Below are positions 1 to 63,345 of a stretch of DNA of 64,000 nt, one piece after another. The position numbers and the translations under genes were made by a program. Under the pieces are notes generated by a model. It made no database searches, was not told the DNA's origin, and saw only the letters and a program-made list of their open reading frames with translations. Positions within the stretch are counted from its first letter, which is position 1, and the number at the start of each line of letters is the position of its first letter. The DNA is from Candidatus Woesebacteria bacterium RBG_16_42_24 (GTDB lineage: Bacteria > Patescibacteriota > Microgenomatia > UBA8517): assembly GCA_001792115.1 (NCBI GenBank), contig MGFX01000007.1, forward strand, positions 5,265 to 69,264, given 5' to 3'.

Positions 1-457
1 GTGGCGTAGGTATATGGACTATGGGGTTTACGCCTACTCCTTTTGCAAGATACTCAATCCACCTGTATGGTGGAATACTTTGCGCAAGAGCTCCGACTTT
101 TGTTACTGCCATTGATACTGCTAGAATTGCATTTGCTCCGTATTTTGACTTATTTTCAGTTCCGTCTATTTCTATCAACTTGGCGTCAATTTCATAAAGA
201 TGTATAGGGTCAAGGCCAGAAACTCCCGGACCCAAAATGTCATTGACATTCTTTACTGCCGTTAATACCCCTTTTCCTCTATACCGGGTATTTTTAATGT
301 CTCTTAACTCTAACGCCTCGTGTGTTCCAGTTGATGTACCTGCAGGAACCGACGCGACAGAAATCATCCCATTGGTTAACTGGCAGGCTGCTTCAACCGT
401 AGGTATTCCTCTTGAATCAAGGATTTCTCTTGCCCATATTTTCGAGATAGTTGCCAT
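1..457 (-). CDS. eno: Enolase, N-terminal 152 aa (gene continues beyond the window start)
   Basis: Hand translation of the minus strand from an ATG at 457..455 gives MATISKIWAREILDSRGIPTVEAACQLTNGMIS...VPAGTSTGTHEALELRD...GKGVLTAVKNVN..., the canonical enolase N-terminus. It overlaps the ppsA stop by 1 nt (TAATG). Confidence 0.8.
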   Translation of the reverse strand, partial: MATISKIWAREILDSRGIPTVEAACQLTNGMISVASVPAGTSTGTHEALELRDIKNTRYRGKGVLTAVKNVNDILGPGVSGLDPIHLYEIDAKLIEIDGTENKSKYGANAILAVSMAVTKVGALAQSIPPYRWIEYLAKGVGVNPIVHIPTP

Positions 458-2727
458 TATTTCCTGCCCAATTTTTTCTCTGCGTTATGAATTAGAAGTC
501 TGGCGCGCTCTATAGAATCGGGATTTACAGAAATACTGGTTATTCCGTAACTAACCAGTTTTTCAACTAAATCGTCATACTGCGAAGGTGCCTGTCCGCA
601 AATTGAGGACGTAATTCCATGCCTATGACATGATTTTATAACCCGCTCAAGGGCCCATAGAACGGCCGGTGTTCTCTCGTCAAAAGCTGAAGCAACCTCT
701 GCGTTATCCCGATCTGTTCCTAAAATAAGCATAGTTAAGTCATTTGAACCAATGGATATTCCGTCTATTCCTACTTTAGCAAAGTCATCAAATTGGATAA
801 TGTTTACAGGAAGCTCAACCATCATCCAAAACTTAAAACTCGGGGATTCAAGTAATCCCTCTGATGCAACAATCCTTTTTACTTTTGAGAGTTCCTCAGG
901 TGAGCGTACGAAAGGAATCATAAGCCATAGGTTCTTGTGTTTTTCTCTAACCTTTTTAATAGCGGCAAGCTCAAGTCCAAAAACCTCCGGGTTTGATATG
1001 TAGCGAAATGCTCCACGGTACCCTAACATTGGATTTGATTCTTCCGGTTCCCATGCTTCTCCTCCGGGAAGAGATCTATATTCGTTAGTTTTAAAATCTG
1101 TTGCCCGATATACAACAGGTCGTGGGTTAAAAGCATCACAAAAGGTGGTCAAATGACTCGCCAGCTTATTAATAAACTCTCCTTGGGTTTTATGTTTTAT
1201 CGCTTCTTTTGGGTGAATCCCAATGTCTGCTATCATAAACTCGGCCCTAAGAAGCCCCACCCCTTCTACGTTCATTTTGGCAATCTCTTTTGCGCGTTCA
1301 GGTTCAGCAAGATTCACATATACTCGTGTTGCAGTTCTCAATTTCTTAGAAGATTTTTGCGGAGCAATCTTAACTTCGGTTTTTGAAACTGCACTGCCCA
1401 TAAACACCATTCCTTTCTTTCCGTCAACCGTAACAACCTGGTCGTCTTTGAGTGTTGAGGTTGCTTTTTTTGTTCCTACAACACAGGGTATTCCCAATTC
1501 CCTTGAAACAATAGCCGCATGAGATGTCTGCCCTCCTTCGTCGGTGATAATCGCCGCTGCCTTTTTCATCGCAGGGACAAAATCAGGTGAGGTCATTATG
1601 GATACTAATACGTCTCCTCGGCCGACTTTGCCTATTTCTTTGGGAGTTTTGGCGATTCTAACGGGGCCGGTGCCAATACCAGGACTAGCCCCGCTACCAG
1701 TGAGAATTGGTGCCTCGGCTATCTTATATTCCCCTTTATCTCCTTTTAATATCTCGCCGGCCTTTTTGATAGTTGTTATTGGTCTAGTTTGAACGATATA
1801 TATTTTCCCTTTTTCCTTAGCCCATTCAACGTCCTGCGGAAAGTAATAATGTTTTTGGAGTTTCGCTCCTATTTTTGCAACGGCTATAATTTCTTTATCG
1901 CTAATTTTTTGTAAATGTTTTATTCTCTCTGAAACTCCAGTTTCTATGGTTGCTCCTTTGACCCGAATGAGCTGTATTGATTGGTCAACTACCTGCTTTG
2001 AAAGAACGTCAAACGTATCTTTTTGAACAACGTAATGATCAGGAACAACTGTCCCTTGAACAATCAGCTCTCCCAATCCCCAAATTGCCTCAATAACAAT
2101 TCTGTCTTTCTCATTAGTCACTGGATCTTGAGTAAACATAACTCCCGAAACCTCCGACTGGATCATTTTTTGTACTATTACGGAAATTTTGACTTTTTGG
2201 TATGGTATTTTATTTTGTTCTCGATAAAAAATTGCCCGGGCAGTAAAGAGTGAAGCCCAACACTCACGGGTATAAGTTAAGAGGTTAGCCTCTCCCTTAA
2301 CATTCAAAAAGGTCGCTTGTTGCCCTGCAAATGAGGCATTTGGAAGATCCTCGGCTGTAGCTGAAGAGCGAACTGCTACGAGAGCATTTCTAAAAATCCC
2401 CGATAGTTTTTTGTAAGAGCGCACAATTTCGGTGCCAACTGCTTCGGGTATTTCAGAAGTTTTTATCTTCTTTTGTATTTTTAAGGCTGCGCTTTCAAGT
2501 TCCTGTGTATTGGCAACATTTGTAATCTTAATAATTTTCGCAATACCATCTACGATTTTGTTATGCTCCATAAAAACATCATATGCCGGAACCGTGATGG
2601 CAAATCCATTTGGAACAGGAAAACCTGCCTTTACCATTTCTCCTAAATTGGCGCCTTTGCCACCAACGAGTGGTAAATCTTCTTTGTCTATATCTTTGAA
2701 GAAAACGGTTAAGGGTTTGGCAGGCAT
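457..2727 (-). CDS. ppsA: Phosphoenolpyruvate synthase (pyruvate, water dikinase)
   Basis: N-terminal ATP-grasp region (VGGKGANLGEM), PEP-utilizer swivel domain (GGQTSHAAIVSRELGIPCVVG) and C-terminal TIM-barrel PEP-binding domain. Start reassigned to the internal MPAKPL (ATG at 2727) to remove the overlap with the upstream gene. Confidence 0.85.
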   Translation of the reverse strand: MPAKPLTVFFKDIDKEDLPLVGGKGANLGEMVKAGFPVPNGFAITVPAYDVFMEHNKIVDGIAKIIKITNVANTQELESAALKIQKKIKTSEIPEAVGTEIVRSYKKLSGIFRNALVAVRSSATAEDLPNASFAGQQATFLNVKGEANLLTYTRECWASLFTARAIFYREQNKIPYQKVKISVIVQKMIQSEVSGVMFTQDPVTNEKDRIVIEAIWGLGELIVQGTVVPDHYVVQKDTFDVLSKQVVDQSIQLIRVKGATIETGVSERIKHLQKISDKEIIAVAKIGAKLQKHYYFPQDVEWAKEKGKIYIVQTRPITTIKKAGEILKGDKGEYKIAEAPILTGSGASPGIGTGPVRIAKTPKEIGKVGRGDVLVSIMTSPDFVPAMKKAAAIITDEGGQTSHAAIVSRELGIPCVVGTKKATSTLKDDQVVTVDGKKGMVFMGSAVSKTEVKIAPQKSSKKLRTATRVYVNLAEPERAKEIAKMNVEGVGLLRAEFMIADIGIHPKEAIKHKTQGEFINKLASHLTTFCDAFNPRPVVYRATDFKTNEYRSLPGGEAWEPEESNPMLGYRGAFRYISNPEVFGLELAAIKKVREKHKNLWLMIPFVRSPEELSKVKRIVASEGLLESPSFKFWMMVELPVNIIQFDDFAKVGIDGISIGSNDLTMLILGTDRDNAEVASAFDERTPAVLWALERVIKSCHRHGITSSICGQAPSQYDDLVEKLVSYGITSISVNPDSIERARLLIHNAEKKLGRK

Positions 2728-2752
2728 TCTTATTATGTTCGCAGATATTTCA

Positions 2753-3829
2753 TCACTTCGCAAGCTCGTTTTTGAAGTAATCGACCCAGGGAATCGGGGA
2801 GGGATCAATGCCGTAGAGCATTGCAAGATAAAAGCTGATATACGAACCGAGAACCAAAAGTTCATAAACCTGATCAATCTTCGTCTGTCCTTTAATTTTT
2901 AAAACGTCACACGCAACACCATTTTTTTCAGTAACATCTATTGTTATTGGATACCTCTTTTTAATCTCTGTAGGATAAAGCTCTGAATCTAAGAAAAGAA
3001 AATGTATAAAACTTTTAGCGCTAGCCGGATTTCTTAAACCTTCTAATAAGTGATGATTGAGCTCAGGAATATCAAAGAAAAGAGCAAATGCTTTAGAATT
3101 TTCGTTCAGCTGGTTCTTAAAGGCATGCGCAATTCCTACTAAATGTGAGCTCGCTATAAGAACTGGAATTTTGTCCTTAAGCTTGGCAGCGTAGAGTTTC
3201 GCTAAGTTATCTTTTATAGGAGTTCTAGCTCCAAATGCCGAAACCGCACTTTCCATATCTTTAACTATTTTTTCAATATCCACGTTGCTAACCTGTGTAA
3301 AACCCAGCTTGTTGAGCAACGCTAAATTGGCCGTTATTGAGTAGCCTAATGCCATTCTAGGCTGCCCCGAAGGGTTTTGTTTGGCTTCAAATATATAAGA
3401 ATTGATATTGTTTTCTTTAGCTAACTCGGCCAACTTTCCGCCGGTTGCTACGATAAAAACCCGGGCTCCTTTAGACATAGCGTCATGGGCCGCCGAAACC
3501 GTTTCCGCTGTATTTCCTGAATACGAAGATAAAATAACGAGAGTGTCGTCTTTTACATAATAAGGTAAGCTGTAGTCCGTTACGACTTCGATTGGCGCGA
3601 GATTAGACGATGATAACAGTGAATGGAGTATTCTCCCAGCAAGTGCGGAGCCTCCCATCCCAGAAACCACGATATGAGATACGCTACGATACTCATCGGG
3701 GAGAGCAATTGCAATTTCTGATACTTCTTGCCAAGCTTGTGCGACTTGCTTGGGTAGGGCTTCAATCGAACCTAAAACATTCCCTTTATCAAGTTCTGCT
3801 ATTTTTGACAGATCATCAAGGTTATCCAT
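2753..3829 (-). CDS. Bifunctional phosphoglucose/phosphomannose isomerase (archaeal-type, SIS domain)
   Basis: 358 aa; SIS-domain motifs (VVSGMGGSALAGRIL, ILSSYSGNTAETV); length and sequence typical of archaeal-type PGI/PMI. Confidence 0.65.
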   Translation of the reverse strand: MDNLDDLSKIAELDKGNVLGSIEALPKQVAQAWQEVSEIAIALPDEYRSVSHIVVSGMGGSALAGRILHSLLSSSNLAPIEVVTDYSLPYYVKDDTLVILSSYSGNTAETVSAAHDAMSKGARVFIVATGGKLAELAKENNINSYIFEAKQNPSGQPRMALGYSITANLALLNKLGFTQVSNVDIEKIVKDMESAVSAFGARTPIKDNLAKLYAAKLKDKIPVLIASSHLVGIAHAFKNQLNENSKAFALFFDIPELNHHLLEGLRNPASAKSFIHFLFLDSELYPTEIKKRYPITIDVTEKNGVACDVLKIKGQTKIDQVYELLVLGSYISFYLAMLYGIDPSPIPWVDYFKNELAK

Positions 3830-23465: not shown

Positions 23466-24857
23466 CTAGAGCTTTGTAACTTGCCCCTCGATTGCATCAA
23501 CAAGTACTTTATCTCCATTCTTTAGTAGGAAAGTTGCATTGTTGGTTCCGACCACACAAGGAATTCCAAATTCTCTCGCAATAATTGCAGCGTGGGAAGT
23601 AATCCCACCAGAATCTGTAACAATTGCGGCGGCCTTAGTCATTGCAACAACATATGCTGGCTGGGTCTGAAATGCAACAAGTATTTCTCCCTTTTTAAAT
23701 TCTTTTAAGTCATCGTAGACTTTAATTATTCTTACTCTTCCCTCAACTTTTCCTCGACAAGCAGCAGTTCCTTTGATTTCTTGAGTTTTTGGTCGCTTAC
23801 GTTTTATTAATTTTTGGATTTTTTTAAATTGTTTTTGGTCTTTGAAGTAATAGAAATGAAGTTTGCCTTTCTCTGGCCAGACCAGCCTCAATTGGTTATT
23901 GTACCTTTCTTCATATTTCCTTATCTTTTTTGGGTTTTCGCTTACTTCAATGAGCTCTTCAAAAGTCAAGTTTTGGATAATTCCTTCGACATAGTACATA
24001 CCCATCTTTTTCTTAAGATAATTTTTAAATAGGAAATCAAGTTCGACTTGCTTGTCCGCGGCCCGATTATCGTACGAGTTAATCTTAACAAAAGTATTTA
24101 TTAGGTTTTTATCCTTGGCTGAAACTTTATCAATAAACATGAGTTCTTTATTTTGTTCTTTCTCCTTAACTAAGCCTTTTAGCTGATCTAGAAAGCTTTG
24201 TGGACCCCAGGGCTTGAGTCCTCTTTCGCTTGTGCTTATCCAGCCGTAATTTTCTGTGTGTCTTACCAATAATATTTTGATTTTTGGATCCAATTCTTCA
24301 AAGTTAAAATCAACTTTCTCAAACTCTTTTTGGAAATTTTTGTAAATTTCTAAAAGGTTATTATTGCTTTCCGTTAATTTAGTTTCTGAAGAATTTTTAA
24401 GAATGTAATTTATAATATCTGCTTCTGGAACTGATTCCTCTTTTGAAATTTCGGAAACCCCATGAGGGATAATCTCGTCAAATACCAGTGAAACAGAGCT
24501 CATAAGAAGAGATAAATTTTCCTGTATTTTAATGTACTTTTTAGAATCAAATTTTTGGTCATTAAGTTCAAAAATTAGTTTATCAGCAGATACACAGATA
24601 TCTTCAAAATCTTTTAAGAGTTTTTTAGTCTTTTGGCTGTCTTTGAAAAAATCTCTAAATCTTTCTAGGATCTCAGCTTCTTTATAAAAATCCAGGTACT
24701 CATCCCCGAAGACAGGCACCTTGTATCCTAGATAAATTGGATATTTGCCAAAAGACATTGTCTTGGCAAAAAGAAGGTGAATATACCAATCCCATTGCCA
24801 AACGCCTCCCCTGGTCCAATAGCCTTTTTTGACTTTTCTAATAAAACTTTCAAGCAC
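23466..24857 (-). CDS. Orphan PEP-utilizer swivel (phosphohistidine) domain protein with an uncharacterised lysine-rich N-terminal ~360 aa
   Basis: The C-terminal ~100 aa (RVRIIKVYDDLKEFKKGEILVAFQTQPAYVVAMTKAAAIVTDSGGITSHAAIIAREFGIPCVVG) matches the mobile His domain of PEP synthase and PPDK. No ATP-grasp GGKGANL motif and no PEP-binding TIM barrel. Markedly AT-rich. Confidence 0.55.
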   Translation of the reverse strand: MLESFIRKVKKGYWTRGGVWQWDWYIHLLFAKTMSFGKYPIYLGYKVPVFGDEYLDFYKEAEILERFRDFFKDSQKTKKLLKDFEDICVSADKLIFELNDQKFDSKKYIKIQENLSLLMSSVSLVFDEIIPHGVSEISKEESVPEADIINYILKNSSETKLTESNNNLLEIYKNFQKEFEKVDFNFEELDPKIKILLVRHTENYGWISTSERGLKPWGPQSFLDQLKGLVKEKEQNKELMFIDKVSAKDKNLINTFVKINSYDNRAADKQVELDFLFKNYLKKKMGMYYVEGIIQNLTFEELIEVSENPKKIRKYEERYNNQLRLVWPEKGKLHFYYFKDQKQFKKIQKLIKRKRPKTQEIKGTAACRGKVEGRVRIIKVYDDLKEFKKGEILVAFQTQPAYVVAMTKAAAIVTDSGGITSHAAIIAREFGIPCVVGTNNATFLLKNGDKVLVDAIEGQVTKL

Positions 24858-24909
24858 AGTATGATTATACAGTGAGAATGTGGAATTTGGGTGGAGTTTA
24901 GCCTCTAAA

Positions 24910-25119
24910 GGGAGTAAAATGTGTCTTTAATTGTCCGCGCACGGGTTGGGCTTGCCCTAAAAATTGCGCATTCAATTTTCAGGGTGAAGGGCAAGGACAA
25001 TTTGTTCCTGTCTTAACGCGCGCAAAAAATAGCGGAGGCGAGGCTGTTAGGCCGAGCCGGAGCTGCGACAATTAGGGTGTGCGACAAAAGTTAGTTCGAG
25101 CTTTTTCAAAAACGAGCTC
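24910..25119. repeat. Intergenic repeat element, copy 1 (~210 bp)
   Basis: Near-identical blocks shared with 29666..29929: gggagt...cgcacggg, gaagggcaa.gacaatttgttcctgtcttaacgcgcgc, caaaaaat, agcggaggcgaggc, ggccgagccgg, ttcgaRctttttcaaaaacgagctc. Ends 5 nt before the GTG start of the 25125 gene. Confidence 0.7.
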
Positions 25120-25124
25120 CATAA

Positions 25125-25847
25125 GTGACAAAAATAAACATTAATGACAAAAAAGTTACAATAATGGATAATGGTTTTATGAATAAATACGTGGTGTTGC
25201 TTCGTAGTAACATATTTAAAATCACGACGCTTGTTTTGTTTCTGATTGTTCTTGTTGTCAGCTTTGTTAACATCAGCTTCCAGCAAAAACTTAAGGATAC
25301 AACCCAAAAATTGGCATTTAAAAGCGAGGAATATGAGCTGTGCATAGATGACAAAGCAAAAATAATAGAAGAATCTAAGCAAACTTATTCTCCTCAGGAA
25401 TTTAAGATTTCTTCTCCTTTGTTTGAAGGAAAAGAAATGACCGTAAAAATGTTGGGTTATAAAGGCACTGAGATAAAAGAGATGACAATTGATCTTCCGC
25501 AAAGTGATCAGCTGGGTCATCCGATTAATATTAAAGTCTGGGATTATATTAACGTTCCTAATCCAAAAATGGCAAGATTCGACCAGTATTACAATGCCTT
25601 TCCACTTTGGGCAGAAACAGTAAATGATAATCTGACAAATTATTTTACATATAAGACGACTAGTGGATTTTCTATGAATCGCGCTTGTGGAGAATTAACC
25701 ATTTCGAGAAGCATCACCAGCATTCACAGCATTTATGTATTGATATCAGGCTATCAATGTACTGGAATATTTCCAGGAAAAGAGGAAGAAACAATCAGGG
25801 AGTCAACAAAGTTTCTAGAGGAAGTAGCAGACACTATTAATTTTTAG
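25125..25847 (+). CDS. Hypothetical membrane-anchored protein
   Basis: 240 aa; TM helix at ~30-50 then a soluble domain without recognisable motifs. Very AT-rich. GTG start with no obvious RBS. The antisense ORFs in this region look like low-complexity artefacts. Confidence 0.4.
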   Translation: MTKININDKKVTIMDNGFMNKYVVLLRSNIFKITTLVLFLIVLVVSFVNISFQQKLKDTTQKLAFKSEEYELCIDDKAKIIEESKQTYSPQEFKISSPLFEGKEMTVKMLGYKGTEIKEMTIDLPQSDQLGHPINIKVWDYINVPNPKMARFDQYYNAFPLWAETVNDNLTNYFTYKTTSGFSMNRACGELTISRSITSIHSIYVLISGYQCTGIFPGKEEETIRESTKFLEEVADTINF

Positions 25848-25942
25848 CTTTACTCTAGCGTGGCAAAATCATCAACACCTAAGAGTTCTTTCAAGGCCAA
25901 AAGCTGAACACCCAACTCTGGTGTGATATACTTTGATAGGCT

Positions 25943-26022: not shown

Positions 26023-26793
26023 ATGCAGATAGATTTCTTCGAGGAGTTCCCCAACGATGATAGTTTATCTAAGTTGCGCATTATTAAATTTCGAACAAAT
26101 CTCTATGTCGCTGCTAAAAGTGTAAAAGAATTCTTAGTTTTAAAAACTAAAATTAAGAAGTTTTATAGAAATGTAGCCGAGGTAATTTACTGGCCTATTC
26201 TAGAGGTGAATGAAGGTTATTGGCTATCAGCATTCTCCAAAACATTGGCAATTAAGCGAATTCTAAACGAGCTTAAAAATACAAACGAGAAGTTCTCAGT
26301 ACTTTGGGATGCAGAACTGCCAATATTAGCTAAAGAACTTTTCGTGACTCAATTACCAAATTTCTTAAGAAATCGGAAAATTATAAAAAAAGTAACATTG
26401 CATCAAGACTCAAATCATCCTCTTATAATAACGGCATTTCCCAAAAGCGGAATAAATAAATTCTTCTCGAGTCTGGCGTGCACTTATTTTTCTTCTGGAA
26501 GTTTTCCCTATATCGATATGCTCTATACCTCTTTACTGAGGGTAAAAGATAAGTCTAGGTATGTACGTAGTGCCATAAAAAGAAATAAAAATAAATTTCA
26601 GGAATACTCTGTTGCACTTGGACTTATTGGGCGAGGGGTAGAAGATTACTCAACACCACTAATTTCTCCTCTTGGCTTAAAAATGGATTTAGGTATCGCA
26701 CAGAAAGAAGGGGTAAAAAATGTAGTACTTTATCGCCTAGGAGGCTTAAATAAAAATTATCTCGGAGTGCTTGAGGAATTTGTCAGTAAATAG
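26023..26793 (+). CDS. Hypothetical protein
   Basis: 256 aa, AT-rich, no recognisable motif. Confidence 0.4.
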   Translation: MQIDFFEEFPNDDSLSKLRIIKFRTNLYVAAKSVKEFLVLKTKIKKFYRNVAEVIYWPILEVNEGYWLSAFSKTLAIKRILNELKNTNEKFSVLWDAELPILAKELFVTQLPNFLRNRKIIKKVTLHQDSNHPLIITAFPKSGINKFFSSLACTYFSSGSFPYIDMLYTSLLRVKDKSRYVRSAIKRNKNKFQEYSVALGLIGRGVEDYSTPLISPLGLKMDLGIAQKEGVKNVVLYRLGGLNKNYLGVLEEFVSK

Positions 26794-26909: not shown

Positions 26910-27386
26910 ATGATTAAAGATTTGAACAAACTAGCCAGGAAAATTATTCAGGAAAACCAATATGTAACAATTGCCACATCAGACAAAAATGGCAATCCTT
27001 GGATTTCTGCAGTGGTTTATGCATATGACAAAGACTGGAATTTTTATTTCATTTCAATCCCTTCATCTAAACACTGCCAGAACATAAAAAATAATAAAAG
27101 GGTTGTGGTTGCAATTTTCGATTCACATCAGCTTTTGGGTGAAGGAGTCGGTTTACAAATAGAGGGTGAAGCGATTATGGTGGATATTAAAGACACGCCT
27201 AAAGTAGCTACAATTTATTTTGGAAGAAAATACCCATATGGCAAGGTGGCGCATAATGCCGGTCAGTATATCAAAAGATTTATGAAGAAAGGAGAACTAT
27301 ACAGATTTTATAAAATTCGACAGACAACGTTTTGGATGAACGACCCAAATAGCAAAATTGATTTAAGAGTTGAAGTAAAATTATGA
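26910..27386 (+). CDS. Pyridoxamine 5'-phosphate oxidase-like FMN-binding split-barrel protein
   Basis: YVTIATSDKNGNPWISAVVY...NKRVVVAIFDSHQ pattern typical of the PNPOx/general-stress-protein-26 family. Paralogous to the 28102..28578 product. Confidence 0.55.
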   Translation: MIKDLNKLARKIIQENQYVTIATSDKNGNPWISAVVYAYDKDWNFYFISIPSSKHCQNIKNNKRVVVAIFDSHQLLGEGVGLQIEGEAIMVDIKDTPKVATIYFGRKYPYGKVAHNAGQYIKRFMKKGELYRFYKIRQTTFWMNDPNSKIDLRVEVKL

Positions 27387-28105
27387 ATATGGATTTTCAG
27401 AATAAAGTAGCAGTTATCACAGGAGCAAGTAGAGGACTTGGCAAAGAAATTGCGATACTTTTGGCTGAGCAAAAAGCCAAACTTGCACTGGTTTCCCGAT
27501 CAGAAAATGAGCTAAATAAAGTCAAAGAAGAAATTGGCCCCAATGCGGAATATTTTGTCTGCGATATTTCAAACTCAAAAGCAGTTGAGAAAACCATCGT
27601 TGAGATTCATCAAAAGTTCGGCAAAATAGACATTCTCATCAATAATGCCGGTATTTGGTTTGAGGGGCTAGCAGAAAAACACCCTCCAGAAAAGGTTAAA
27701 GAATTATTCGACGTAATCACGTTGGGAACTATTTATGTAACAACAAGCGTGCTACCAATTCTCAAAAAACAGGCTGAAGGGCAAATATTAAATGTCGTTT
27801 CTGTCGCAGGGATAGAAACTCCCGGAGCTGAAATGGGTCCTTACTCGCCGTATACTGCCGCAAAATATGCTGTAACCGGGTTCACGAAATCATTAGAGGA
27901 AGAACTCAAAGGGACAAAAATAAAAGTAATGGGAATTTATCCAGGCGGAATGAATACACCTCTATTCAAGAAAGCTGGTTTTGATTATACAGAAAACGAA
28001 AATTGGATGATGGATAAGAAAGATGTCGCCAAAATTATTTTATTCATGCTCTCACAACCAAAAGACGTAATTATTGACCACTTAGTTGTAAGAAAATTTA
28101 GTTAA
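27383..28105 (+). CDS. Short-chain dehydrogenase/reductase (SDR)
   Basis: TGASRGLG cofactor-binding motif, NNAG, and a YxxxK active-site region (YTAAKYAV). Confidence 0.8.
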   Translation: MNMDFQNKVAVITGASRGLGKEIAILLAEQKAKLALVSRSENELNKVKEEIGPNAEYFVCDISNSKAVEKTIVEIHQKFGKIDILINNAGIWFEGLAEKHPPEKVKELFDVITLGTIYVTTSVLPILKKQAEGQILNVVSVAGIETPGAEMGPYSPYTAAKYAVTGFTKSLEEELKGTKIKVMGIYPGGMNTPLFKKAGFDYTENENWMMDKKDVAKIILFMLSQPKDVIIDHLVVRKFS

Positions 28106-28578
28106 GCCTTCCAAATTCCGTATTCTTCAGGTGAATAAAGTTCTTTGTTGAAAAACTTTAAATACTTTGGGGTAATCTTCCAAACGTTAGTGTCAGCAAA
28201 TTTTATAACCTCCTTTATCGTTATCTCCTTTTCTACTCCAGGGTTTTGCTTATGCCAAAGTGCTAATGCCTTAGTTAGATTGATAATTCCTTTAACCTTC
28301 TCGATTGTGCCGGATCCTTGGAGCCCCTTCTTGGGTTCAAAAATCTTTTGGTGAGAATCGAAAATATTAAATGCGATTTTGTTGTTCTTAGTCATATCTT
28401 TGCCGTGAATTGAGTTCGGGTCGGTAACAATGTACAGATTCATATCTTTGTCAATTCCATAATAAACAGTGCAAACCCAAGGGCCTTTTGAGGATTGAGT
28501 AGCCAACGTCATGATTCCCTTCTTTTTAAGAAACTTGAAAATATCTTGCCCGATTAGAACGTTTGTTCTTTTACCCAT
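28102..28578 (-). CDS. Pyridoxamine 5'-phosphate oxidase-like FMN-binding protein (paralog of the 26910..27386 gene)
   Basis: IMTLATQSSKGPWVCTVYYGIDKDMNLYIVTDPNSIHGKDMTKNNKIAFNIFDSHQ aligns with the 26910 product. Start placed at the internal Met to avoid a 90-nt overlap with the pyrD-like gene. Confidence 0.5.
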   Translation of the reverse strand: MGKRTNVLIGQDIFKFLKKKGIMTLATQSSKGPWVCTVYYGIDKDMNLYIVTDPNSIHGKDMTKNNKIAFNIFDSHQKIFEPKKGLQGSGTIEKVKGIINLTKALALWHKQNPGVEKEITIKEVIKFADTNVWKITPKYLKFFNKELYSPEEYGIWKA

Positions 28579-28599
28579 CAAGGCTATAATATCACTGGA

Positions 28600-29664
28600 G
28601 TGAATAAATTCAAAATTGAACACTGGGTCTATAAAAATATTCTCAGGCCATATTTGTTTGCTATTGATTCCGAAAAAATCCACGACCAAATGATTAGGTT
28701 TGGGGAACTCACGGAAAATGCAGGCTGGTTTTTAGAAGCCCAATACTCATATAAAAGCGATAGGTTAAAAAGGTCGTTTTTAGATGTAGATTTTGAGAAT
28801 CCAGTGGGGCTTGCTGCCGGGTTTGACTACGATGGACATTTAGCCAAAACAATGAAACATCTCGGGTTTGGATTTAATACCATTGGCACAGTTACGGCTA
28901 AGCCTTACGGAGGTAACCAGAAGCCTAGGTTGCTAAGACTTGTGAAGTCTCGAGCGATTCTTGTAAACAAAGGCTTCAAGTCAGAAGGTGCGACCAAAGT
29001 GGCAAAAAGGCTAGACGCAAAAAATCTTCAAGGACACACTGTCGGAATCAGTGTCGGAAGCTCAAACATTCCAGAAGTGAACACAATTGACAAAGCGATC
29101 AATGACTATGTCTTTACTTTCAATGTTTTTAAAAACAAGCCTTACGTTAAATATTTTGAACTTAATATCAGTTGTCCTAACACAGCGATGACTGAGTCAT
29201 TTACTACACCACAAAATTTTGAAAAGTTGGTATCCGCCGTAAGTAAGCTGAATTTGAAGCAACCAATCTTTGTGAAAATGCCAAACGAAATAGTCAGTAA
29301 AGAAGCAGAAAGCTTAGTAAGAATTGGTTTGAGGTATAGAATAAATGGCTATATTTTCTCTAACCTTGTTAAGGATCGGGGAAATAAATACTTTGTAAAA
29401 AGCGAGATCGAAAAGATGGAAGGCTACAAAGGTAATTTTAGCGGGAAACCCTGCACGGAGAACTCTAACAAACTTCTGGCGCATGTTAAGACAAAGTTCG
29501 GTAATAAGGTTGTCCTGATTGGCCTTGGCGGAATTTTCAATGCGAAAGACGCAATCCAGATGTTTGAAAGTGGGGCCGATTTAGTACAACTTATAACAGG
29601 AATGATTTTTGAAGGACCTCAAATAGCAGGAGAGATAAATTATCAACTTTCTATTGGTAAGTAG
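28600..29664 (+). CDS. pyrD: Dihydroorotate dehydrogenase-like, class 2 (quinone-type) architecture
   Basis: N-terminal extension YKNILRPYLFAIDSEKIHD, ENPVGLAAGFDYDG, GFGFNTIGTVTAKPYGGNQKPRL, NISCPNT, and C-terminal LGGIFNAKDA...GADLVQLITGMIFEGPQI all match class-2 PyrD blocks. Confidence 0.7.
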   Translation: MNKFKIEHWVYKNILRPYLFAIDSEKIHDQMIRFGELTENAGWFLEAQYSYKSDRLKRSFLDVDFENPVGLAAGFDYDGHLAKTMKHLGFGFNTIGTVTAKPYGGNQKPRLLRLVKSRAILVNKGFKSEGATKVAKRLDAKNLQGHTVGISVGSSNIPEVNTIDKAINDYVFTFNVFKNKPYVKYFELNISCPNTAMTESFTTPQNFEKLVSAVSKLNLKQPIFVKMPNEIVSKEAESLVRIGLRYRINGYIFSNLVKDRGNKYFVKSEIEKMEGYKGNFSGKPCTENSNKLLAHVKTKFGNKVVLIGLGGIFNAKDAIQMFESGADLVQLITGMIFEGPQIAGEINYQLSIGK

Positions 29665-39242: not shown

Positions 39243-40259
39243 ATGTCTCGCAAATGGAGGGTCCTGTTCGTGCTGGGAATCCTGGCGGTACTTACTGCCG
39301 GATGCGGAGCCTCTGCTCAACCGCAAGCCCAGCCGCCTGTGCAGGTGGAGGTTATCGTTGTCTACCCTACTCCGATGCCTACCCAGATTCCTGCACCAAC
39401 AGCCGTACCGTTGAAGCTCGATGACACCCCTCGTATCGCCCTGATTTCTGCCTTTGACGGCGAACTCTACGCTTTCAGGGACGAGGGCAACATCGAGGAA
39501 ACCCTAGTCGTCGACGGCCGAACCGTGTACATGGGAACGCTTGCTGGGCACGACGTTCTCATGACGATCAGTGGGGTTTCGATGGTCAACGCAACGCAGG
39601 CGGTGACCACGCTGATCGAGCGGTTCAACATCACACACATCGTGTTTTCGGGTATAGCGGGCGGCGTCAACCCGGATCTTCGAATCGGCGACGTGGCTGT
39701 GCCTGCGAGGTGGGCTGAGTACCAAGAGAACTACTTCGCCCGAGAGACGTCCGGCGGCTTCGCTCCCCCGCCCTGGGTCACGCCGATAGCACCCAACTTC
39801 GGGATGATGTTTCCCAGCTGTCCCGATGTCGTTCTGCCAGGGTCTCCGCCCGACCTCGAGACTACGATGTGCTGGTGGAACGCCGACCCAACCATGCTCC
39901 AAGTCGCCCAACAGGTGGCCACCAGCATCGAGCTCGAACGGTGTGTCGATGCAGACCACTGTCTCAGTGAAACGCCGGTCGTCAGGGTCGGTGGAAACGG
40001 CGTAGCCGGGCCCACTTTCGTGGACAATGCGGAATACCGAAGCTATGTCTGGGACGTCTGGCGGGCTGACTCCCTGGACATGGAAAGCTCAGCCGTTGCC
40101 CACGTGGCTACCGACAAGCATGTTCCGTTCATCATCTTCCGGAGCCTCTCCGATCTTGCCGGAGGCGGCCCAGGAGAGAACGAGATCGGGACATTCTTCG
40201 GCATCGCGGCCACCAACAGCGCCAGGGTCATGCTCGCCTTCCTGGAAGCCTGGCCGTAA
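39243..40259 (+). CDS. Lipoprotein of the PNP/UDP phosphorylase family-1 (MTA/SAH nucleosidase-like), strongly GC-rich
   Basis: Lipobox LTAGC after a signal peptide; GHDVLMTISG, FSGIAGGV and DMESSAVAHVA match family-1 nucleoside phosphorylase/nucleosidase motifs. GGAGG RBS 7 nt upstream. 60-nt spot counts give ~63% GC, against ~35-45% for neighbouring genes. Confidence 0.65.
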   Translation: MSRKWRVLFVLGILAVLTAGCGASAQPQAQPPVQVEVIVVYPTPMPTQIPAPTAVPLKLDDTPRIALISAFDGELYAFRDEGNIEETLVVDGRTVYMGTLAGHDVLMTISGVSMVNATQAVTTLIERFNITHIVFSGIAGGVNPDLRIGDVAVPARWAEYQENYFARETSGGFAPPPWVTPIAPNFGMMFPSCPDVVLPGSPPDLETTMCWWNADPTMLQVAQQVATSIELERCVDADHCLSETPVVRVGGNGVAGPTFVDNAEYRSYVWDVWRADSLDMESSAVAHVATDKHVPFIIFRSLSDLAGGGPGENEIGTFFGIAATNSARVMLAFLEAWP

Positions 40260-40346: not shown

Positions 40347-40418
40347 TGGTCGCTGCAGGGATCGAACCTGCGACCTCTTCGATGTGAACGAAGCGCTCTA
40401 CCACTGAGCCAAGCGACC
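40347..40418 (-). tRNA. tRNA-Val (anticodon CAC)
   Basis: Minus strand: acceptor GGTCGCT/AGCGACC, anticodon stem CTTCG/CGAAG with loop TTCACAT, T-arm GCAGG-TTCGATC-CCTGC. Confidence 0.85.
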
Positions 40419-59593: not shown

Positions 59594-60550
59594 TTAGTTA
59601 AAACCAATGAGCTGTACTTCGGGTTCTAACTTTATTCCAAATTTTTTCTCTACTTTGTCTCGGTAAAAGTTCGCTAAATCGATAAAGTCTTTCGCTTTTC
59701 CTCCACCTAAGTTTATTATTAGGTTTCCGTGATACTCGGCTATTTCCACCCGGCCTTTGCGAGCTCCGATTGCTCCAACCGATTGCATAAGATACCCGGA
59801 GGGGATTTTACCAAAAATGATTTTATCTTCCGGAATTCTCTTTAGGGACTCCGCCGAAACGTCCTTTAATAGGACATTTTTAAAAAAACTACCCGGGCAC
59901 CTAACTCCTTCTGGATATTTACCCGCCCTCATGGCAATAATTTCTTTACTTTTTGAGACGAGCTCTGAGGATTTTCCCTTGGGAAACTGAAACGTCGCCG
60001 AAAGTATTATCCAACTTTTGTGTCCTTTAAAGACGCTCTCTCTGTAGGAAAACCTAAGTCTTCTTTTTTTCCAAATTACGACCTTGCCGTCTTTAAAAAA
60101 CTTAACACTTTTTAAATGGTCACATATTGCTTGGCCATATGCGCCTGCATTTCCATAGATCGCCCCACCCACAGTTCCGGGAATACCAGCCATGCTCTCT
60201 ATTCCTTGACTGCCTGAACGATTAACGAAATCTATAAACTCCGCTAAAGAAGTCCCTGCCTTGACTTCAAAATGGCCGTTTTCTTTGCTTATTCCCTCTA
60301 CACGATTCACGATTACGACTCCGTCGTAGCCTTTATCACTAACTAGTAGGTCGCTCCCCTCCCCTATGACTATAAATTTTTCTTGGGGGATAAGCTCTTG
60401 CAAAAGTTTTAGCAAAGTTTCTTCTCCACTTACTTCAATAAGCATCTTTGAGGGCCCGCCAATTTGAAGAGTAGTATGCTTACTCATTGGCTCGCTCTTG
60501 AACCCTTTTAGTCTATTTTCTTTAATAAACTCCTCAAGTTTTTTCATCAT
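59594..60550 (-). CDS. murB: UDP-N-acetylenolpyruvoylglucosamine reductase
   Basis: FAD-binding PCMH domain (IGGPSKMLIEV...GEGSDLLVSD), and MurB C-terminal domain with catalytic Ser/Glu context. Confidence 0.8.
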   Translation of the reverse strand: MMKKLEEFIKENRLKGFKSEPMSKHTTLQIGGPSKMLIEVSGEETLLKLLQELIPQEKFIVIGEGSDLLVSDKGYDGVVIVNRVEGISKENGHFEVKAGTSLAEFIDFVNRSGSQGIESMAGIPGTVGGAIYGNAGAYGQAICDHLKSVKFFKDGKVVIWKKRRLRFSYRESVFKGHKSWIILSATFQFPKGKSSELVSKSKEIIAMRAGKYPEGVRCPGSFFKNVLLKDVSAESLKRIPEDKIIFGKIPSGYLMQSVGAIGARKGRVEIAEYHGNLIINLGGGKAKDFIDLANFYRDKVEKKFGIKLEPEVQLIGFN

Positions 60551-63345
60551 TTAATTAAAGCTTCGTGTAAATAAAAAATGTCGCCAGCGCCAAGTGTCAA
60601 AAGCAGATCTCCCCTCCTTAGATTCTTTTCAAGCCAGTTAGCCGCCTCTTCATGCCCTCCTATATAATAGGCCTCCTTATTATGCCTCCTCGTTTCTTTA
60701 GCCAAATTAAGCGAGTTTACCGTGGGATCCTTTTCTTCCCTGGCCGAGGAGTAAATGTCCATGAATGCCACAACGTCTGCGTCGTCAAAAGAGGTGGCAA
60801 ACTCGGCAAAGAGAACCTTTGTCCTAGTGTACGTATGAGGTTGAAAAACGGCGACAATTCTTCTTTCGGGGAACCACTGCCTAGTCGCCGCAAGAACCGC
60901 CCTAATCTCGAGTGGGTGATGTGCATAATCGTCATAGATTTTAGCTCCTCCAACCTCTCCTACGAACTCGAATCTTCTTTTTACTCCAACAAATGCCGCC
61001 AGTCCTTCTTTCGCCACATTTGGAGAAATTCCAAAAAGTTTGGCTACGATAAATGTGGCAGTGGCATTGAGGACATTATATTGTCCCGGAATATTAATTC
61101 TTATATTTTTTACGATATCTGTTTTATGTTTAAGAGAGAATTTTGTAGAACTGGGGGAGAAAGTAACGTCCGTAATTCTCCAGTCGGCGTCAGGGGAAAA
61201 GCCAAATGTAGCCTTGGGTACGTCTATGTCGGAAATTAAGTCCCTTATATTCTTATTATCAACGTTAGCAACCAACCATCCATCACTTGGTACTTTTTGG
61301 AAAAATTCTTTAAAAGCTCTCTTAGTATCGGCAATTGTCGGGTAAATATCTGGGTGATCGTGCTCAATGTTTGTTACGACCAATACTTTAGGGGAAAGAA
61401 GAGAAAATCTGGGGTTATCGTTCACCCCGGGTGAAATTGCAAATTCATCTCCCTCGCAAACAAAGTATTTTCCCTCCTTATTAAACTTTCCAGGAGTATT
61501 TAGGGGGAAAATATTGCCAACCCCTATTGCAAACGATGGGGCTAGATTGGCGCTTTCAAGAAGATGCGCAATTAAAGAGGAGGTGGTGCTTTTGCCTCCG
61601 ACCCCACATACGCAAATTGTATCTTTGCCCTGTGAGAGCATGGCTAAAGCTTCTGCGTGGGTCATAACGGGGATTCCTCGCCTGCCTGCCGCCAAAACCT
61701 CCGGATTATTAAGGCCGCCATGCGCTCCGGTGGTAATCAACAAATTGCATTCCTTGTCAATATTTTTTCCCGAAAAACCAACTTTCCATTTGATTTTTCT
61801 TTTTGCGAGAATCTCGTCGGTAACAAATACTTCCTTCGTATCGCTTCCCGTAACTTTTGTTCCTTCATCGTCAAAACAAAGGGCAAGCGATGTCATTCCT
61901 ACCCCCTTTATTCCGGTAAAATGCACAAGCTTTAGACTCTCAAAATCAAATCCTCTCTCGACTGTCTTAACTTTTCCTTTGAGAGCATCTGCCACCGCCT
62001 CCTGATCACTCCATGGATATTCTTTTGACCCATAAGCCATACTTTTTTCGTGACCCTTTCCTAGTATTGCGACAATATCCCCTTTTCTAGCTAATTTATT
62101 AATAGCATAAAAAATTGCCTCACCCCTTTCTTCAATCTTGTAAATGTCCGTACCCTCCTTCGCTCCTCGGGAAATTGCACCGGATGCCATTTCATTTATT
62201 ATTTTTCTAACTGATTCGCCTCTTGGATCCTCTGCGGTGAAGACGGATATATTAGCTAGCCGTGCCGAAATATCCCCCATCATAGGCCTTTTTTGCTTAT
62301 CTCTCTCACCCGCGCATCCGAATATGGCAATTAATCTTGCACCATGACTTATCCTTACCAGCGCTCCCAGAGACATTTCTAAACCATTGGGAGTATGGGC
62401 AAAGTCTATAAATACCCTAAAACCTCTATTTGTTTTTATCTCTTGCATCCTTCCAGGGAGTTGGGGAAGAGTTTTAACTGCCTTCACTATTTCCGCTTCT
62501 TTTACCCCACACTCTTTTGCAACTGAAATCGCTGCTTGAGCATTTAAGTGGTTGTAATCCTCGGGAAATCTGTTTTCTATCGCTTCCGTCAGCCTTTTAC
62601 TAAGGGAAACGGGGTAATTTACTATCCTCACATTTTTATTTATGAGAGGTTTAATTTTGTTGTAAGAAGCGTCCCTCAGATTAAGAATAGCAACTCGGAC
62701 ATCCAAAAAAAGTTTGGATTTTGCTAAAATGTAGGCGTCGAAAGACTTGTGATAATCAAGGTGCTCATGCGTAATATTGGTTAATACCCCTATATCAAAT
62801 TTAATCCCTGCCGTCCTTTTTTGATCTAGACCGTGTGAAGTTATTTCAAGAACTGCGTATTCACATTCTGCGTCAACCATTTGTGAAAGAATTCTTTGAA
62901 GGTTAACTGTGTCTGGATTCGTAACGTGGAAACCCGTATCGAGAACCTTTCTCCCGACTTTTGCGTCAATTGTTGAAACAAGGCCAACTTTCTTCCCGGC
63001 ACACTTTAGCATCCAGTAGATAAGGCTTGCGGTTGTAGTTTTTCCGTCCGTACCCGTCACCCCTATTACCTTCATTTTGGCCGAAGGATTATGATAAAAG
63101 TTAGATGCGAGCACCCCGAGAGCTTCTCGAGAATCGGGGACTCTTATGTAGGTCGCATCCGGAATAATATCATACTCTCCAACGACTATCGAAGCTCCCC
63201 GGGAGATTGCGTCTTCTATAAAATCGTGTCCGTCGTGATTTATTCCTTTGACCGCAACAAAGATATAACCTCCCTTCACCTGCCTTGAATCGCTAGTTAT
63301 CCCCGAGTATTTTCCAAGTTCCTGAAGTAATTCGTCGAGCTGCAC
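60547..63345 (-). CDS. murE/murC: Fused MurE (UDP-MurNAc-L-Ala-D-Glu--diamino acid ligase) and MurC (UDP-MurNAc--L-Ala ligase) polypeptide
   Basis: The N-terminal half has MurE motifs (ITSDSRQVKGGYIFVAVKG..DGHDFI; VIGVTGTDGKTTTA; HEHLDYH). The second half restarts with a MurC N-domain (HFTGIKGVGMTSLALCF..GTKVTGSD), a second P-loop (GVGGKSTTSSL) and a MurC C-domain. There is no stop or frameshift between the halves. Confidence 0.75.
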   Translation of the reverse strand: MQLDELLQELGKYSGITSDSRQVKGGYIFVAVKGINHDGHDFIEDAISRGASIVVGEYDIIPDATYIRVPDSREALGVLASNFYHNPSAKMKVIGVTGTDGKTTTASLIYWMLKCAGKKVGLVSTIDAKVGRKVLDTGFHVTNPDTVNLQRILSQMVDAECEYAVLEITSHGLDQKRTAGIKFDIGVLTNITHEHLDYHKSFDAYILAKSKLFLDVRVAILNLRDASYNKIKPLINKNVRIVNYPVSLSKRLTEAIENRFPEDYNHLNAQAAISVAKECGVKEAEIVKAVKTLPQLPGRMQEIKTNRGFRVFIDFAHTPNGLEMSLGALVRISHGARLIAIFGCAGERDKQKRPMMGDISARLANISVFTAEDPRGESVRKIINEMASGAISRGAKEGTDIYKIEERGEAIFYAINKLARKGDIVAILGKGHEKSMAYGSKEYPWSDQEAVADALKGKVKTVERGFDFESLKLVHFTGIKGVGMTSLALCFDDEGTKVTGSDTKEVFVTDEILAKRKIKWKVGFSGKNIDKECNLLITTGAHGGLNNPEVLAAGRRGIPVMTHAEALAMLSQGKDTICVCGVGGKSTTSSLIAHLLESANLAPSFAIGVGNIFPLNTPGKFNKEGKYFVCEGDEFAISPGVNDNPRFSLLSPKVLVVTNIEHDHPDIYPTIADTKRAFKEFFQKVPSDGWLVANVDNKNIRDLISDIDVPKATFGFSPDADWRITDVTFSPSSTKFSLKHKTDIVKNIRINIPGQYNVLNATATFIVAKLFGISPNVAKEGLAAFVGVKRRFEFVGEVGGAKIYDDYAHHPLEIRAVLAATRQWFPERRIVAVFQPHTYTRTKVLFAEFATSFDDADVVAFMDIYSSAREEKDPTVNSLNLAKETRRHNKEAYYIGGHEEAANWLEKNLRRGDLLLTLGAGDIFYLHEALIK

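Follow-up and report, generated by a model that had tools for sequence, protein, structure and literature searches.

We analysed a 64,000-nucleotide stretch of the genome of Candidatus Woesebacteria bacterium RBG_16_42_24 (Patescibacteria; contig MGFX01000007.1; 'the window' denotes this whole stretch, and positions are counted from its first letter), centring on a gene that encodes a 463-amino-acid protein ending in a phosphohistidine 'swivel', the mobile domain of phosphoenolpyruvate (PEP)-utilising enzymes (Table 1). A preliminary description, made from the letters alone, had proposed both the open reading frame (ORF) and its C-terminal mobile domain, and both are borne out: PF00391 (PEP-utilizers) is the sole significant Pfam domain (E 3.6e-27, 94.2 bits versus a cut-off of 23.1), with the profile covered in full (positions 1–72 of 72) and the catalytic His lying in the motif, so that the protein is a member of this family. 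The description was also right that the protein lacks an ATP-grasp and a TIM barrel, as judged by the absence of Pfam matches to PPDK_N and PEP-utilizers_C, and that the same swivel domain recurs in the bona fide PEP synthase gene ppsA of the window, the product of which has all three domains.

The gene is under purifying selection and is a working gene rather than a fragment. A protein identical to that of the window is present in public data (P0001), and the homolog search with the window protein returned 26 full-length homologs (42–90% identity), including one from Candidatus Woesebacteria GWA1_41_8 (P0002, 90% identity) that is encoded by a syntenic gene. We draw this conclusion because the ratio of non-synonymous to synonymous substitution rates (dN/dS) against the GWA1_41_8 ortholog is 0.157 for the whole gene, 0.163 for the N-terminal domain ('N-domain') and 0.134 for the swivel.

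Table 1. Positions of the principal features in the window
Feature	Positions	Strand	Basis
Probable acceptor-subunit gene (RPH/HpeH-like dikinase)	23466..24857	-	Complete ORF, GTG start, 463 aa + stop
N-terminal helical domain, aa 1-345, putative acceptor-substrate-binding	23823..24857	-	RPH RIF-binding-domain-like fold
Phosphotransfer-helix segment Y262-D-N-R-A-A-D268	24054..24074	-	Aligns with RPH-Lm Y665-R666-E667-Y-P-K670 (MAFFT, HMM)
Helix + beta-hairpin linker, aa 294-345	23823..23978	-	Homologous to C-terminal tail of PpsA ATP-grasp
Phosphohistidine swivel domain, aa 346-463	23466..23822	-	PF00391; Pfam core aa 387-458 = 23484..23699
His422 codon, predicted phospho-carrier	23592..23594	-	Motif T414-x-x-G-G-I-T420-S-H422
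GGITSHAAI motif	23583-23609	-	Translation
Bona fide PEP synthase PpsA (context)	457..2877	-	Pfam PPDK_N + PEP-utilizers + PEP-utilizers_C

A swivel domain resembling that of PEP synthase

His422 never varies, either among the 41 homologs of the alignment or across related split modules (162 of 162); the counterpart histidines, His581 of HpeH and His825 of rifampin phosphotransferase (RPH), are essential (PMC12167813, PMC4844700). By sequence, the swivel is PpsA-like rather than RPH-like: the nearest solved sequences are PEP synthase swivels (8a8e, E 9e-24; 9dae; 2ols), identity is 47–48% to PpsA swivels and 36% to the swivel of the Listeria enzyme RPH-Lm, and the residue two positions before the histidine (His-2) is Thr, as in PEP synthase, while RPH and HpeH carry Met there (PMC12167813). 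NCBIfam models (PEP synthase, PPDK, RPH, prodigiosin ligases, phosphotransferase system (PTS) enzyme I and others) match the C-terminal ~110–150 aa only, far under their cut-offs, and the defence-system (PADLOC) and phage (PHROG) libraries matched the swivel and nothing further in the window protein.

The homology to PEP synthase extends upstream of the swivel into the linker: BLASTP aligns residues 294–460 of the protein with residues 322–491 of the window PpsA at 38% identity, and the alignment to the PDB PEP synthase 8a8e begins at residue 289 of the query (309 of the chain). In P0027, a relative with a fused ATP-grasp, the ATP-grasp-tail motif occurs twice, once where its own grasp ends and once more ahead of the swivel. 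The homology of aa 294–345 to the PpsA grasp tail, together with this doubling, hints that the acceptor modules descended from a PpsA-like ancestor.

An N-terminal domain with a fold distantly related to RPH

The preliminary description could recognise nothing in the N-terminal ~360 aa apart from Trp-rich stretches, of which WQWDWY lies at aa 20–25. At the level of family libraries this stands, as aa 1–345 match no family in Pfam, NCBIfam, PADLOC or PHROG; it no longer does at the level of structure and relatives, since Foldseek finds the rifampin (RIF)-binding fold of RPH and since ATP-grasp-fused and operon-linked relatives exist. The AlphaFold2 (AF2) model of the whole protein, built with 41 homologs, has a predicted local distance difference test score (pLDDT) of 92.7 and a predicted template modelling score (pTM) of 0.91; residues 60–320 are nearly all in long helices, followed by a beta-hairpin (324–337) and then the swivel fold. 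Searched against the PDB with Foldseek, the whole-protein model has Listeria RPH on top (5fbs, 5fbu, 5fbt and 5hv1; E 1e-11 to 1e-12, query-normalised template modelling (TM) score 0.51–0.58, 525–560 columns), while the other matches align the swivel only, at TM ~0.2. Re-modelling the N-domain alone (pLDDT 95.6) removes the contribution of the swivel to this match; RPH-Lm (5fbs) is then the sole credible hit (probability 0.98, E 0.055, TM 0.45, 386 columns), the runners-up having a probability of at most 0.09 and a TM of at most 0.18. As judged by these models, the kinship of the N-domain fold to the RIF-binding domain of RPH is real but distant. The same was seen for HpeH, for which RPH is likewise the sole solved structure aligning past the swivel (PMC12167813).

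A divergent PPDK_N ATP-grasp hidden in the N-terminus, the alternative that the description had itself raised, is ruled out: PF01326 is not matched, a hidden Markov model (HMM) of the grasp has no match in the gene even with filters off, and the modelled structure is helical. An attempt to link the close-family N-domain to RPH by sequence failed, the long RPH profile alignment being carried by the swivel score. When 1.84 billion cluster representatives were searched with the N-domain using phmmer, only 24 matched; the N-domain search gave 15 representatives of 50%-identity clusters at E ≤ 1e-30. The specific N-domain subfamily thus appears small, and the N-domains of the superfamily seem to diverge fast.

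A clade-specific variant of the phosphotransfer helix

In RPH-Lm, Arg666, Glu667 and Lys670 of the phosphotransfer site are essential (PMC4844700); these are the residues by which the phosphate is held. The clade of the window protein carries Y-D-N-x-A-A-D at this position (aa 262–268), including the ATP-grasp-fused relatives P0027 and P0028 and the operon-linked protein of a Levybacteria locus (L024), and the alignments contain no conserved Arg or Lys in this helix within the clade, small and acidic residues standing in for the basic ones. The wider family, found in bacteria of the Candidate Phyla Radiation (CPR) and in archaea of the DPANN group, has W-x-D-x-R-K at the same position, where 62% of the modules carry the D, 81% the R and 64% the K. 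Because the variant motif is conserved and under selection, we read DNxAAD as pointing to a different site chemistry – metal-assisted transfer or a cationic acceptor, for example – rather than to decay.

ATP-grasp partners are fused to or encoded beside the relatives

The domain missing from the window protein is found in its relatives. P0027 and P0028 (701 and 702 aa) begin with a PPDK_N ATP-grasp (aa 1–235), and the region after it matches the query over its whole length at 42% identity; by their sequences these proteins are Rosetta-stone fusions with the domain order of RPH, that is, grasp–middle domain–swivel. The closest homolog in the genome collection among the matches listed (L024, Levybacteria; 35% identity, with the DNxA[AS]D motif in common) is part of a tightly packed operon, in which acceptor modules of 439, 465 and 355 aa are followed by a stand-alone 277-aa ATP-grasp. 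This type of grasp is 59–72% conserved among the homologs listed, the named ones coming from Levybacteria, Daviesbacteria and other Patescibacteria. A Woesebacteria locus (L066) encodes a 494-aa module and then a 310-aa grasp, and further adjoining module/grasp pairs are present at L037, L033, L073, L013, L007 and L005.

Stand-alone grasps are numerous. Two grasp queries match thousands of PPDK_N-only proteins, those listed being ~240–350 aa long and many of them from CPR/DPANN, with CPR bacteria and Woesearchaeota among the named ones; the genes often adjoin genes of PEP-utilizers proteins. The search for homologs of the Levybacteria grasp gave ~8000 stand-alone grasps; among the 120 listed, which are mostly nameless, no named one is from GWA1_41_8. 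Scanning metagenomes produced two close relatives, one of them apparently a copy of the GWA1_41_8 contig (L088), and a scan of the genome collection with swivel patterns gave a mixed set with no close ortholog among the matches listed.

Two candidates for a partner next to the window gene were examined and rejected. A degraded grasp pseudogene upstream (24858–25850) is not supported, as both tblastn and the six-frame HMM search were empty there; the divergent 256-aa neighbour (26023..26793) matches the grasp at chance level (E 2.6), has no Pfam domain and is not conserved beside distant orthologs.

Arrays and giant fusions of acceptor modules in CPR/DPANN genomes

In a mixed set of 87 fetched loci, drawn in part from the genome-collection scan, three HMMs (one each for the grasp, the N-domain and the swivel) picked out 153 split acceptor modules, compared with 14 stand-alone grasps; a further 25 genes were of the ordinary PpsA-like kind. 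Tandem arrays of 6–9 genes each are found at L012, L018, L021, L023 (Taylorbacteria), L031, L044, L055/L056, L058 and L059, in CPR/DPANN genomes and a few metagenome-assembled genomes labelled otherwise. The array genes encode proteins of ~340–520 aa that combine a divergent helical N-domain with a conserved swivel: between paralogs of the same locus, identity is 55% in the swivel and 18% in the N-domain. The arrays at L021 and L031 each include a single stand-alone PPDK_N ATP-grasp gene.

In other genomes the modules are fused into one polypeptide. The largest case is a single 3761-aa ORF from Woesearchaeota (L048:473-11758 (+), with no runs of N in the DNA), in which one N-terminal grasp is followed by eight swivel modules. 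Proteins of ~2000 aa with one grasp and four swivels are encoded at both L069:5565-11624 and L083:6938-12922, a protein with one grasp and three swivels is followed by four more split modules at L084:6851-11050, and one N-terminal grasp is likewise fused to several modules at L054:384-4319, L032:7871-11572 and L067:6878-10342. Searches of the full-text literature found no prior description of such arrays or fusions. Their gene and domain layout suggests a 'one charger, many acceptors' system.

Proposed role and alternative explanations

We consider it rather likely that the product of the window gene is the acceptor half of a split ATP-dependent dikinase of the RPH/HpeH type and is charged in trans. 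The idea, already voiced in the preliminary description, that the protein acts like rifampin-phosphotransferase-like enzymes is the best-supported reading. The assignment draws directly on the domain composition, the conserved motif around the histidine, the likeness of the N-domain fold to RPH, the purifying selection and the fused or operon-linked ATP-grasp in relatives; from these we infer, by analogy, charging in trans in this organism, kinase activity and a small-molecule acceptor. Since the layout is homologous to that of RPH and of HpeHI/CreHI/PpsAB (PMC4844700; PMC12167813), we propose a cycle in which a separate PPDK_N-type ATP-grasp protein would bind and present ATP, His422 on the mobile swivel would attack the beta-phosphate, AMP and Pi would be released, and the phospho-His swivel would return to its own N-domain, where the phosphate would be passed to a bound small molecule.

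Several observations weigh against this assignment. On sequence, the HMM of the close-family N-domain gives no RPH match, an HMM of 117 wider-family modules gives a marginal one (E 0.018), and the E-value of the Foldseek match of the N-domain alone is 0.055. In two independent alignments the RPH residues R666, E667 and K670 are replaced by D263, N264 and A267, although across such distant sequences the alignment of the site is possibly off by a residue or two; the second phosphotransfer may therefore be different, or absent. The window contains no stand-alone ATP-grasp, the PPDK_N domain of PpsA being the only one detected by tblastn and the six-frame HMM search, and no grasp is encoded within 8–10 kb of the close orthologs (L001–L004, L088/L091). 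Finally, the neighbourhoods of the swivel gene are not conserved across orthologs and give no clue to the substrate.

Some of these points lend weight to other explanations. With the RPH R666/E667/K670 positions occupied by D/N/A throughout the clade, while the broader family retains D-x-R-K, and with the gene standing alone without a partner gene nearby, the protein could, having lost the Arg/Glu/Lys site, no longer be a small-molecule kinase at all and serve instead as a phosphohistidine carrier, sensor, regulator or binding pseudo-enzyme. We regard this as unlikely. DNxAAD is conserved clade-wide, including in the grasp-fused P0027/P0028 and the operon-linked L024 protein, and this speaks for a functional site with a different chemistry; neither His422 nor the swivel motif varies, and selection on the N-domain is purifying (dN/dS 0.16). 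A different source of phosphate would be the housekeeping PpsA, encoded ~20 kb away and already named in the preliminary description as a possible donor, which might charge the protein in trans through its ATP-grasp, or through its PEP-binding domain with PEP, making it a phospho-relay branch off central metabolism. PpsA provides the sole PPDK_N domain of the window, close orthologs are without a nearby dedicated grasp, and the query swivel is PpsA-like, both in its identity to the window PpsA (38% over aa 294–460) and in having Thr at His-2 where RPH has Met (PMC12167813). However, every informative relative has a dedicated short ATP-grasp, be it fused (P0027/P0028) or operon-encoded (L024, L066 and others), and the ortholog flanks, of which 8–10 kb were fetched, hold no PpsA and no PPDK_N at all. 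We know of no precedent for a PpsA charging a foreign swivel domain, and hold charging by PpsA to be distinctly improbable.

It is very unlikely that the gene is a true rifamycin-inactivating phosphotransferase and hence an antibiotic-resistance gene. RPH-Lm is the best structural match, the NCBIfam model RIF_Ptrans_rph matches the swivel region, and a CPR resistome screen reports rph-like matches in Microgenomates (PMC8651080); against this, NF041857 scores 74 bits versus a cut-off of 999 and over aa 351–460 only, the polypeptide is without an ATP-grasp, the N-domain has 345 aa as compared to ~430 in RPH at 13–16% identity, and neither the catalytic nor the RIF-site residues are conserved. 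A reading of the ORF as a PEP synthase or PPDK gene that has been truncated or is decaying, which the PEP synthases among the top sequence matches and the likeness of aa 294–345 to the PpsA grasp tail might suggest, is effectively refuted by the dN/dS of 0.16, by the conserved full-length family (26 homologs, 42–90% identity) and by the N-domain itself, which is confidently folded, helical and not a degraded grasp.

A broader and more tentative possibility is that the window gene stands alone as an outlier of an extensive, apparently undescribed CPR/DPANN system, in which one ATP-grasp charger would serve many fast-diverging acceptors, arranged as arrays or giant fusions and perhaps trapping or neutralising host-derived small molecules; the acidic DNxAAD of the clade would then indicate either that the chemistry of the acceptor differs or that the role is not that of a kinase. 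CPR/DPANN genomes, small as their coding capacity is, devote a striking share of it to tens of paralogous acceptor modules per grasp. If the modules phosphorylate different small molecules, they would give obligate symbionts a layer of metabolite capture or detoxification that is as yet unexplored, and would also be a source of new kinase specificities. For annotation, labels such as 'phosphoenolpyruvate synthase' or 'rph' (the latter as used in resistome screens, PMC8651080) are misleading for such genes.

Genomic setting and other features of the window

The gene was described as lying on an AT-rich island. Its GC content is indeed low, at 0.33 where the N-domain is encoded and 0.39 where the swivel is, as compared to ~0.42 for the window, and that of the 24–29 kb stretch is 0.34–0.38; an island, however, is not supported. 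In GWA1_41_8 the gene is syntenic together with the genes around it, namely DHODH, two PNPOx-like genes, SDR, the 256-aa ORF, LysM, PolX, LemA and HtpX, and the locus is therefore a conserved chromosomal site with no evident foreign island. The low GC of the gene largely reflects the Lys/Asn/Ile-rich composition of its helical domain.

A perfect TATAAT hexamer (24864..24869 (-)) ends 6 nt upstream of the GTG start; it is missing from the promoter scan list because it has no -35 match. No Shine-Dalgarno-like sequence is present between the hexamer and the start, and the transcript may be leaderless or nearly so.

Both flanks of the gene are indel hot spots. On one side, the gene is separated from the conserved 256-aa neighbour by a 240-aa ORF (25125..25847 (+)) that belongs to no family, has a hydrophobic N-terminus and is without a counterpart in the syntenic GWA1_41_8 locus. 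On the other, tRNA-Gly(CCC) alone separates the swivel gene from the LysM gene in the window, while in GWA1_41_8 the two are separated by ~4 kb of small unannotated ORFs (L088:11463-15733). Further along (26910..28689), SDR is flanked by the two PNPOx-like (pyridoxamine-phosphate-oxidase-fold) genes, with the DHODH gene adjoining; this block is kept beside the swivel gene in the sister Woesebacteria genome (L088), and no functional link between it and the swivel protein could be shown.

Three further observations concern other genes of the window. The longest ORF of PpsA starts with TTG (806 aa), yet its PPDK_N match does not set in until residue 69; translation probably begins further downstream, in agreement with the 457..2727 given in the preliminary description. 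The only GC spike of the window (0.56 versus ~0.42) coincides with a 338-aa ORF of the PNP_UDP_1 nucleoside phosphorylase superfamily (39243..40259 (+)), which adjoins a tRNA (40347-40418) and may have been horizontally acquired. Lastly, a 932-aa ORF (60547..63345 (-)) matches Mur_ligase_M and Mur_ligase_C twice each and looks like a fusion of two Mur ligases.

Comparison with known families

By sequence, PEP synthase has the closest swivel, sharing GGxTSHAAI including the regulatory-type Thr, with homology reaching into the last ~50 aa of the ATP-grasp. The rest of the PpsA/PPDK architecture is absent: the grasp HMM run with filters off finds the separate PpsA gene only, there is no C-terminal TIM barrel (PF02896), the query stopping 5 residues past the swivel domain, and the PEP synthase models NF005057 and TIGR01418 score 123 bits versus 598 and 112 versus 740, respectively. 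RPH-Lm (PDB 5FBS/5FBT/5FBU/5HV1; PMC4844700) is the sole solved match to the fold of the N-domain, distant as it is, and the swivel is C-terminal in both proteins. However, RPH-Lm includes an ATP-grasp within its single chain of 867 aa, whereas the query is without one, overall identity is 13–16%, NF041857 reaches 74 of the 999 bits required and on the swivel only, and D263/N264/A267 stand in place of Arg666/Glu667/Lys670.

The N-domain-plus-swivel modules of CPR/DPANN have the same layout as the query, with lengths of ~340–520 aa, swivels ~47% identical to that of the query and N-domains that are very divergent, although matched by the N-domain HMM at E 1e-8 to 1e-28. They mostly carry W-x-D-x-R-K and stand in arrays, often with a grasp gene, whereas the clade of the window protein carries DNxAAD and the window gene is solitary. 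One close ortholog has a second, distant 441-aa paralog 7 kb away (L004:64-1389 (+)), for which precomputed Pfam annotation lists a weak Rph_4th (PF27448) match together with PEP-utilizers; PF27448 is also listed for P0096, while the entry identical to the window protein (P0001) lists PF00391 only.

A substrate-binding and swivel subunit that works with a separate ATP-grasp subunit is a described arrangement, represented by HpeHI, CreHI and PpsAB (PMC12167813). Split RPH-type dikinases gained recognition as a subfamily only recently, and solely in the phenolic catabolism of free-living bacteria (PMC12167813); here this layout is present in genome-reduced Woesebacteria, in a smaller form with a PpsA-like swivel, an altered phosphotransfer site and no linked ATP-grasp gene. 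The window protein shares with HpeH, CreH and the alpha subunit of phenylphosphate synthase (also named PpsA) an RPH-like substrate-binding domain, a C-terminal swivel (T/S-x-x-G-G-x-x-x-H) and the absence of a grasp from the chain. Those proteins have ~600–650 aa and ~45% mutual identity, are encoded beside a grasp gene in aromatic-catabolism clusters and carry Met at His-2, and the HpeHI complex is transient (PMC12167813), whereas the query has 463 aa and Thr at His-2, and its gene has no adjoining grasp gene and lies outside any catabolic cluster. The separate, co-encoded ATP-grasp subunit that characterises HpeHI, CreHI and PpsAB is absent from the window and present in the relatives, next to the modules of L024 and L066 and fused in P0027/P0028. 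As compared through PRK08296-type NCBIfam models, which we assume to be proxies for the HpeH/CreH/PpsA group in place of the protein sequences themselves, the query lies outside the group, with NF006149–NF006153 matching aa ~338–463 (the swivel) only, at 83–118 bits versus cut-offs of 578–730. By analogy, then, the window protein most likely works like an acceptor subunit of the HpeH/CreH/PpsA-alpha kind, and is not a member of that group at the level of sequence.

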